Below, one piece after another: positions 49,780-50,833 of a stretch of 64,000 bases of DNA. Made by a program: the position numbers and the translations under genes. The notes beneath the pieces are model-generated. The model searched no databases and was not told the DNA's origin. It worked only from the letters and a program-made list of their open reading frames with translations. The first letter of the stretch is position 1. Each line of letters opens with the position of its first letter. This DNA comes from Octopus vulgaris (lineage: Eukaryota), in the NCBI GenBank assembly GCA_951406725.2, contig OX597822.1, forward strand, positions 49,910,001-49,974,000, in the 5' to 3' direction.

Positions 49780-49842
<63 letters not shown>

Positions 49843-49925
49843 CAATTGCAGCGTGGAAGGTGTTTGTAAGCCATTTAAGAAACACACAAAAGCCGTTCGA
49901 TTCACTTCAACATTTAAGTTTAATT

Positions 49926-49971
49926 TGTCAAAATATTTTCGTCGCTAAAATCCGCGACCTGTTCACTGACA
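49926..49971 (-). ncRNA. Mirror copy of the G3-C8 hammerhead variant
   Basis: Same motif on the opposite arm of the palindrome (5-bp stem I UGUCA/UGACA). Confidence 0.65.
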
Positions 49972-49995
49972 GAAATCCGTGCTGCATCTCAGATT

Positions 49996-50045
49996 TTTGT
50001 CAGTGAACAGGTCGCGGATTTTAGCGACGAAAATATTTTGACAAA
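49996..50045 (+). ncRNA. Hammerhead ribozyme variant with G3-C8 swapped core
   Basis: UUUGUCA-GUGAACA-G-GUCGC-GGAUUUUA-GCGAC-GAAA-AUAU-UU-UGACAAA: 7-bp stem I, 5-bp stem II, palindromic AAAAUAUUUU stem III. Confidence 0.7.
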
Positions 50046-50833
50046 TTAAACTTAAATGTTGAAGTGAATCGAACGGCTTTTGTGTGTTTCTTGAATGGCT
50101 TACAAACACCTTCCACGCTGCAATTGTTTTCGTTTCAGTACACGATCTCAGATCAAATCACTTGCTATGCGAGTACATCTTCCTATATATATATATAATA
50201 AAAGACAAAAGAAGGAAAATACACAGTTTACATAGTTTTATTATATTTCAAATGAAAGTGTATTGTGGTTGTCTACCGGTTTCACTTTCACTAATCGTGA
50301 CATTGAAATTATTGTAATTTCGAATTTTCTCAAGACTATTTTAGCCCATGTTCTGGTATGAAAGTTTGTGAATCAAGCGGCAAGTAGAAAATCTAACTTT
50401 AGTGATTGGGGAAGAATGCGAGTGCTCACTCGTCTGTATAAATTCGGAAGTGCTGGTTGTTGGATATTAGCTATTCGATGTCGCTTATTCGAAAACATAT
50501 TCAATTATTAGTACTCTCAAGTTTACAATTGAAATACTACACTAAAAAAGAAAATAAATGAGTAAAAATATAAGTTTTACGTCTCTTTAATCCACATCTC
50601 TTTACCTACATGAATTAAGAGCATTGCTGTCTGTGAGATATCTTATGGTAGAGGAATGGTATTTAACTGATATTTCTAAATTTCGGTATGTCGTGAAACA
50701 ATTTCAGTTTGCAGAACCCTAATTATAATTATAGAATTTTTGTATAAGGTTACCGATGAAGGTTATTTTAACATACCGATCTACTTGGCAAAATTATTAA
50801 TTACTAATGAATTAATTGATTCTACCCTTTATG

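Follow-up and report, generated by a model that had tools for sequence, protein, structure and literature searches.

A 64,000-nucleotide stretch of the Octopus vulgaris genome (contig OX597822.1 of assembly GCA_951406725.2, positions 49,910,001 to 49,974,000; hereafter the window) carries a near-perfect palindrome with a hammerhead ribozyme motif on each strand, and the question that this locus raises is how one sequence came to lie twice, head to head, at a single target. On the evidence of the letters and of related copies across the host genome (2.8 Gb in 227 contigs, rich in microsatellites), each arm corresponds to the opening ~150 or ~200 nt of a transcript from a young Penelope-like element (PLE), and the palindrome is almost certainly an insertion of that element's pseudo-long terminal repeat (pLTR) in inverted form. 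We propose that both strands of the target prime reverse transcription on sense RNA, with two RNA molecules taking part in some events, and we put the probability of this reading at roughly three in four. The weight of the finding lies in palindromes whose arms belong to different subfamilies and in a naturally occurring G3-C8 hammerhead core, not in the palindrome itself.

The inverted repeat consists of 136-bp arms (49842-49977 and 49992-50127) on either side of a 14-nt centre, and its two mismatches (49876/50093 and 49972/49997) would each form a G.U pair in RNA; the arm alignment confirms the 286-bp palindrome described in an earlier note on this DNA. The same note had set the arms between TA tracts. 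Flanking (TA)n is indeed present, but the right arm does not abut its tract, since a 53-nt unpaired tail intervenes (Table 1).

The arms derive from a ~4.3-kb element with an open reading frame (ORF) of ~1,050 codons for a reverse transcriptase (RT) and a GIY-YIG endonuclease, in which a ~204-nt unit serves as the 3' repeat and also opens the element. At one of the loci fetched from the genome (these carry L numbers), L309, the tail runs straight into the N-terminus of the ORF, and the unit returns at the 3' end of the element, where it matches each window arm at 97-98% identity; the ORF there has ~1,047 codons from the second ATG, with one frame break and one stop. At L307 an open frame of 1,025 aa matches PF01541 (GIY-YIG) at E 1.8e-5, above the Pfam cut-off; its RT motifs were recognised by eye, with no Pfam RT match, and its homologues are named 'reverse transcriptase domain'. 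L307 is a 5.9-kb insertion laid out like the window's 340 bp, with a 1.8-kb arm that bears the tail and a 4.1-kb arm that ends at R1, the inner of two recurrent copy ends in the ORF start (R1, at about unit +148, is 33 nt into the ORF and R2, at about +204, is ~86-90 nt into it). Several copies share sequence upstream of the unit; as a query this gave 468 candidates, 25 of the 29 fetched loci continue into the unit, and the end of a GIY-YIG ORF lies ~1.0-1.3 kb upstream of it. A protein search returned 1,139 candidates, and among the 150 scored there were 33 at 77-100% identity and 117 at 62-66%. The ATG at 50095 is the likely start of the ORF, and its frame agrees with that of a sister family.

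That sister family, 55% identical to the element over 815 aa, is represented by L310 (G000:C5:115838800-115846300, minus strand). It is very young and abundant, with a 1,312-aa open frame that contains an Asn-rich insert, a full pLTR-ORF-pLTR+tail arrangement and the hammerhead core CUGAUGC (C3-G8, with C at 9). A CX3CxxC linker, a short spacing to the GIY motif and a CCHH motif in L307, compared by eye with Nematis rows, point at the level of motifs to membership of the Nematis clade. Identity to a long-linker, Neptune-like family of the same genome is 25%; this 781-aa family, which supplies the main Pfam GIY-YIG genome matches, was rejected as the parent because it shares no DNA with the element. 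No spliced copy that would indicate a spliceosomal intron in the 5' region was seen among the fetched loci, and comparison of the unit with four contig sets, which are silent on ends, strand and editing, gave no splice joint. Two acceptor-like AGs were set aside as intron ends for want of a spliced copy: the one at unit +1 coincides with the inferred start site, and that at 50137-50138 is coding.

The anatomy is that of endonuclease-bearing (EN+) PLEs, which the consulted parts of two accounts (PMC3846280, PMC8557442) describe as head-to-head arms, a one-sided tail, short target duplications and a TA preference. The single ORF joins RT to a C-terminal GIY-YIG domain (L307), the pLTR stands at the 3' end as well as over the ORF start (L309), and the full partial tandem pLTR is seen in the sister family (L310). 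Used as a query, the window element gave 2,204 first-look candidates, and the 40 that were scored had 93-100% identity. Arms and ends were counted in an unselected set, the first 40 loci among 6,805 exact genome matches to the hammerhead core, picked for an intact core alone; two pairs look like segmental duplicates, and about half of the loci are old-subfamily copies. Twenty-four of these loci are two-armed and 16 single. R1 is paired with R2 in 22 of the 24, giving an inverted 5'-truncated copy with a one-sided tail, and R1+R1 or R2+R2 occurs in none. At least one side carries (TA)5 in 28 of the 40 copies, and 10 have unique target duplications of 9-14 bp (mode 12). Across the family the tail is 53-56 nt long, many arms are truncated, and the centre is variable, with 25 junction types among 29 near-full palindromes. 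Rare exceptions to the R1+R2 rule were met elsewhere: L002 and L012 have a tail at both ends (R2+R2), and L247 is R1+R1.

The two arms of a palindrome need not come from the same version of the element. Subfamilies are told apart by loop II of the hammerhead (GGATTTTA in A, GGTCTTAAA/TATA in B, GGTYTCAAA in the old type) and by a few further sites. Palindromes that join an A arm to a B arm gave 48 exact matches, against 0 for the control, among ~498 young palindromes; by our own tally, the first 50 young palindromes listed comprise 34 AA, 10 BB and 6 AB. Of 30 chimeras fetched from the 48, a duplication of 9-17 nt other than (TA)n surrounds 14, TA tracts hold 12 and 4 show no duplication; the tail is on the B arm in 17, on the A arm in 10 and absent in 3. 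Seven palindromes combine A with an old-type loop, and the full old haplotype is found in none of them although old copies make up about half of the unselected loci. There are also five mixed cases of A1 and A2: at L264 three separated diagnostic sites (15-19, 39-44 and 124) switch together inside one duplication, while at L265 and L268 one arm is too short to compare. Such palindromes, with halves from different element versions, make up about a tenth of the total, and in them each half was likely copied from an RNA of its own.

The 5' ends of the copies bear on where those RNAs began. Among 57 copies whose end falls exactly on +1, 43 carry a G at position -1, where the element itself has C or T. 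In single copies, which have no other arm to supply the base, it is present in 7 of 12 (p 0.0015 against 17% G), and at L265 both arms have it. Reverse-transcribed caps are established for other retroelements. We infer that the extra G is a copied cap and that transcription starts at unit +1, in which case the short copies would be cDNAs primed at the R1 and R2 sites nearest the cap. In 10 of 12 unselected palindromes, the window type included, it is the tail-less arm that extends further towards +1. The mixed-subfamily arms, the pairing of R1 with R2 and the frequent extra G are new observations here.

These observations suggest the following course of insertion. Transcription from unit +1 would give a capped sense RNA, and R1 and R2, where copies are seen to end, would be the priming sites. 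An asymmetric, probably dimeric complex of RT and endonuclease would prime one strand of the cut AT-rich target at each site; both cDNAs would reach the cap, and their 3' ends would be joined through short microhomology, leaving the variable centre. Two RNA molecules would be present in at least a tenth of events, as the mixed arms indicate. The hammerhead is predicted to fold in one-arm transcripts and to cleave weakly, only as a dimer or with help from protein, and its cleavage would be unnecessary for insertion. A more specific version pictures a particle of two transcripts, each copied from one target strand, one at R1 and the other at R2, with the protein dimer and perhaps also the palindromic stem III as the link between them. 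It would explain the inverted pLTRs, the one-sided tail and the retention of a poorly cleaving hammerhead as a dimerisation module, the G3-C8 core being a natural active swap reached via a G3-G8 intermediate; we offer it tentatively and lean against it as a whole.

Several points weigh against priming on two RNAs. A1 and B differ almost solely in loop II, so most chimeras cannot show exchange of a whole arm, and L257, L266 and L267 each show a difference between their arms in just one diagnostic block (the 5' block in the last two). Arms agree for the A/B loop in 44 of 50 palindromes, a majority that fits one RNA serving both primings; chimeras are rarer than random mixing of A1 and B would predict (6 seen against ~16 among the first 50 listed), so that two RNAs are indicated as a lower bound of 10-18%. 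In palindromes the other arm could often have served as the template for the -1 G, the longer arm in chimeras is unbiased (13 v 11, 2 equal), and a fully intact copy with the 5' repeat was not among the fetched loci of the window family.

The alternative that survives best is that one RNA serves both R1 and R2, with strand displacement, and that mixed arms arise later through ectopic gene conversion or recombination between copies. It accounts for the strict pairing of R1 with R2, for the concordant majority and for the single-block discordances, and priming on one RNA may hold for most events even if two RNAs serve in some. As a complete account we consider it unlikely: conversion would be required in 10-18% of copies that are just ~2-4% diverged, the chimeras join neighbouring young subfamilies and not the abundant old haplotype, and conversion between adjacent arms should erase differences, not create them. 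Much less probable is self-priming, by fold-back of one cDNA or on an antisense template, as the origin of the inverted arm. In the consulted parts of PMC3846280 self-priming is inferred from palindromic junctions of rotifer Penelope elements, and in two of the 12 unselected palindromes the tail arm is the longer at the junction, which suits a fold-back. Fold-back cannot yield arms of different subfamilies, and L264 strains it further; a tail-less arm with bases that the tail arm lacks (10 of 12) cannot be made by folding back the tail-arm cDNA, unless the centre was later deleted, and the extra G on both arms of L265 also speaks against it. The evidence thus favours both-strand priming on sense RNAs over the published self-priming.

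Least credible of all is the earlier note's proposal of a non-autonomous mini-element, read here as a palindrome mobile in its entirety and able to toggle between a ribozyme and a double-stranded RNA hairpin, for although there are ~500 near-full young palindromes, two copies tailed at both ends and some recurrent junction types, the arms are the pLTR and 5' leader of the ORF-bearing element of L309 and L307, junctions vary as noted above with identical types recurring in different subfamilies, 16 of 40 loci are single-armed and many arms truncated, A1, A2 and B each occur with a long upstream spacer (A1 and A2 in copies that reach the ORF), and the toggle is ruled out by energy and by order of transcription. 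Transcripts from the inferred start at the centre of the palindrome point outward with one arm each, whereas in host read-through on either strand the antisense arm is made first; as the hairpin is worth -246.6 kcal/mol against -13.3 for the ribozyme stems, no switch is expected. A predicted read-through hairpin is a plausible substrate for ADAR or Dicer. Asymmetric ends, a variable centre and an ORF-linked parent likewise set the family apart from miniature inverted-repeat transposable elements and other non-autonomous palindromes, and it differs from retrozymes, whose unit is bounded by the cut site, in that copies start 58 nt upstream of that site. The data leave room for short copies as secondary sources.

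The hammerhead itself folded as the earlier note had described, on both strands. On the plus strand a 7-bp stem I (49996-50002 with 50039-50045) leads into the core GUGAACA (50003-50009) and an extra G (50010); stem II has 5 bp (50011-50015 with 50024-50028) closed by G10.1-C11.1, and is followed by GAAA (50029-50032) and the palindromic AAUAUU of stem III (50032-50037), with U16.1 at 50037 and U17 at 50038. The minus strand is a mirror image. Predicted pairing probabilities in a one-arm RNA are 1.0 for stem II and 0.56-0.99 for stem I. The assignments as young, as Penelope-type and as a minimal hammerhead with a G3-C8 swap and a palindromic stem III, and the predicted cleavage position, also stood. 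An Rfam search gave 10 matches at E<=10, with the hammerhead family absent from all of them and only sub-threshold miRNA hairpins present; the ribozyme call therefore rests on structure and covariation. A comparison with solved structures matched nothing. The core pattern has 6,805 exact matches in the genome against 0 for the reversed pattern, and a hammerhead descriptor matched 233 times in 982 kb of fetched loci and 0 times after shuffling: the hammerhead-like fold with G3-C8 is family-wide and not a product of chance. Another base stands at 8 beside G3 in 434 genome matches, and both positions are changed in 65.

Two of the checks named in the earlier note concern covariation and conservation. 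Covariation is seen at 3-8 and in the stems, where three pairs (3-8, one in stem I, one in stem II) differ on both sides from the sister family, whose core at the equivalent place is C3-G8, and keep their pairing, though a comparison of two families is not a statistical test. As to preferential conservation of the core, five of the eight sites in loop II vary among subfamilies and only one of 43 in the core and stems (a U-G wobble), but variability elsewhere in the leader does not significantly exceed that of the hammerhead core.

Whether such a core cleaves is a closer question. We somewhat favour weak cleavage activity, as a prediction; the competing view, which we find less convincing but take seriously, is that the G3-C8 motif is an inactive relic retained as an RNA structure or as a protein-binding site. 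In the old subfamily, all 100 matches that have a purine at 8 divide into 72 with G3-G8, 23 with G3-A8, 5 others and 0 with C3-G8. The excess of G3-G8 over G3-A8 implies that a source without a 3-8 pair also spread, and from that spread cleavage looks dispensable; this sub-lineage could be either an intermediate or a later loss. The predicted cleavage triplet is UUU, the stem III duplex is worth merely -0.2 kcal/mol, and copies do not begin at the cut site. Position 60 is the start of two among ~40 truncated arms; microhomology in stem I accounts for both, and this is not a significant enrichment. A relic does not readily explain why the double changes against the sister family preserve pairing at 3-8 and in the stems, nor why subfamily changes gather in loop II. 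It also sits uneasily with four unrelated hammerheads in the fetched DNA, which are all Watson-Crick (C-G or U-A) at 3-8 when those bases are left free in the search.

Table 1. Features of the inverted-pLTR insertion, in positions of the window.
Feature	Coordinates	Strand	Remarks
(TA)n target tract, left	49785..49835		28 of 40 unselected copies carry (TA)5 on one side or both
Inverted arm, unit positions 1-148	49842..49989	-	49989 is the inferred transcription start; 49842 is the inner priming site R1 (putative), 33 nt into the ORF
Minus-strand copy of the G3-C8 minimal hammerhead	49924..49973	-	change at 49972 cuts stem I to 5 bp
Junction base	49990		on the minus strand, an additional G that precedes the left arm (position -1) and was likely copied from a cap; the right arm also begins with this base
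Direct arm, unit positions 11-201	49990..50180	+	ends at the outer priming site R2 (putative)
G3-C8 minimal type I hammerhead	49996..50045	+	G3 at 50003, C8 at 50008; cleavage predicted 3' of U 50038
First codons of the element's RT/GIY-YIG ORF	50095..50180	+	likely start ATG 50095; second in-frame ATG 50167
One-sided tail (R1 to R2), coding sequence	50128..50180	+	53 nt
(TA)n target tract, right	50183..50195		any target duplication of this copy is indistinct

Other hammerheads and repeats were met in the fetched DNA. At L274:1868-3195 a direct tandem array of at least 8 units, with a period of ~172 nt and each unit ending at R1 and a TA tract, has a G3-C8 hammerhead in every unit and so constitutes a natural in-cis dimer substrate. 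The unrelated minimal hammerheads in flanks (C3-G8 or U3-A8) are at L028:1324, L172, L179:411 and L224. U3-A8 hammerhead-like motifs accompany the Neptune-like 781-aa family and its neighbours (L037, L038, L050, L056, L060, L049), so that C-G, U-A and G-C cores coexist in one genome. An older repeat family has identical stem I and II sequences with decayed CUGAUGA-type cores (L121, L123, L128, L131, L136, L138, L141, L142, L145, L146, L150). In L299:4520-5035 an N-terminal piece of the ORF lies head to head with an RT piece on the opposite strand, an inversion within the coding region, and the GIY-YIG exon at L048:1501-1650 looks like that of a host nuclease, presumably of SLX1 type, rather than a PLE. 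L091-L120 are an unrelated older dispersed repeat (1,088 first-look candidates) that ends at TA, with one copy of the unit inserted within it; L224 and L225 (G000:C2:171.24-171.25 Mb) are a 3.4-kb triple tandem duplication in which a single decayed unit is included. In L059, what follows the tail proved to be target repeat and was rejected as part of the element; same-strand core repeats 3.2-3.4 kb apart (L151, L224/225) were also rejected, with no PLE ORF inside.

Twin priming of L1 also yields an inverted 5' part, through internal priming on the RNA by the second strand of the target. The two parts of an L1 copy represent non-overlapping stretches of one RNA, unlike the arms described here, which copy the same stretch and can differ in subfamily. 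The closest anatomical parallel is with EN+ PLEs such as Pen2a of Adineta vaga (PMC3846280; Craig et al., PMC8557442, in the parts consulted): head-to-head inverted pLTRs, a tail at one end, the first ORF codons in the pLTR and tail, a short target duplication, a C-terminal GIY-YIG domain and a preference for TA repeats are common to both, while the octopus tail is longer (53-56 nt against a published 30-40) and solo leader copies number in the thousands. Mixed-subfamily arms and a cap-like G are not described for EN+ PLEs in those parts, where self-priming is invoked or the mechanism of the inverted repeats left open. The CX3CxxC linker, short spacing to GIY and CCHH agree, by motif alone, with two Nematis rows in the consulted part of the PMC8557442 supplement.

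For the mechanism, the nearest counterpart is PAc, the Poseidon element of Anolis carolinensis (PMC11167929, in the sections consulted here and below), in which the tail lies between two internal RT starts, both strands are nicked and extended, the protein is predicted to form a dimer, uncleaved RNA is the template and insertion proceeds without cleavage. R1 and R2 correspond to those two internal start sites in the ORF start, and the targets are AT-rich in both; PAc has C3-G8 and an ORF start in stem II, unlike the octopus element, whose ORF starts ~57 nt after the cut site. A two-RNA model is not proposed in those sections and the inverted arms are not explained, and a C3G/G8C change in the PAc ribozyme gives partial rescue. 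Minimal PLE hammerheads (Cervera and De la Pena 2014, PMC4209133, as far as searched in text and supplement) include a U3-A8 variant and have low activity, as dimers; dimer cleavage is also reviewed in the consulted part of PMC6765202. The octopus motif shares with them stems I and II, the extra nucleotide after 9, G10.1-C11.1, a palindromic stem III, an NUH cleavage triplet and opposite-strand pairs 100-700 bp apart. It departs from their consensus CUGANGA with the core GUGAACA, in which a double change keeps 3-8 Watson-Crick. G3-C8 was not found there, and an engineered G3-C8 is mentioned in the part of PMC3884650 consulted; neither a natural G3-C8 core nor a two-template model was found in the literature searched, though Lunse et al., on PLE hammerhead variants, may report G3-C8.

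Set beside these systems, the octopus family offers thousands of copies of a naturally occurring G3-C8 hammerhead, together with a sister that is C3-G8 and a side branch that is G3-G8, and it seeds its genome with hundreds of near-perfect 140-bp hairpins, predicted to be editing or small-RNA substrates if read through. PLEs are the closest relatives of telomerase, and the origin of their inverted repeats is a question named in the consulted part of PMC8557442, to which PMC3846280, in the part consulted, offered self-priming. Wherever a genome has young subfamilies, arms of different subfamilies within one target duplication can be counted as a natural marker, and they give a direct two-RNA test for the existing in vitro system.
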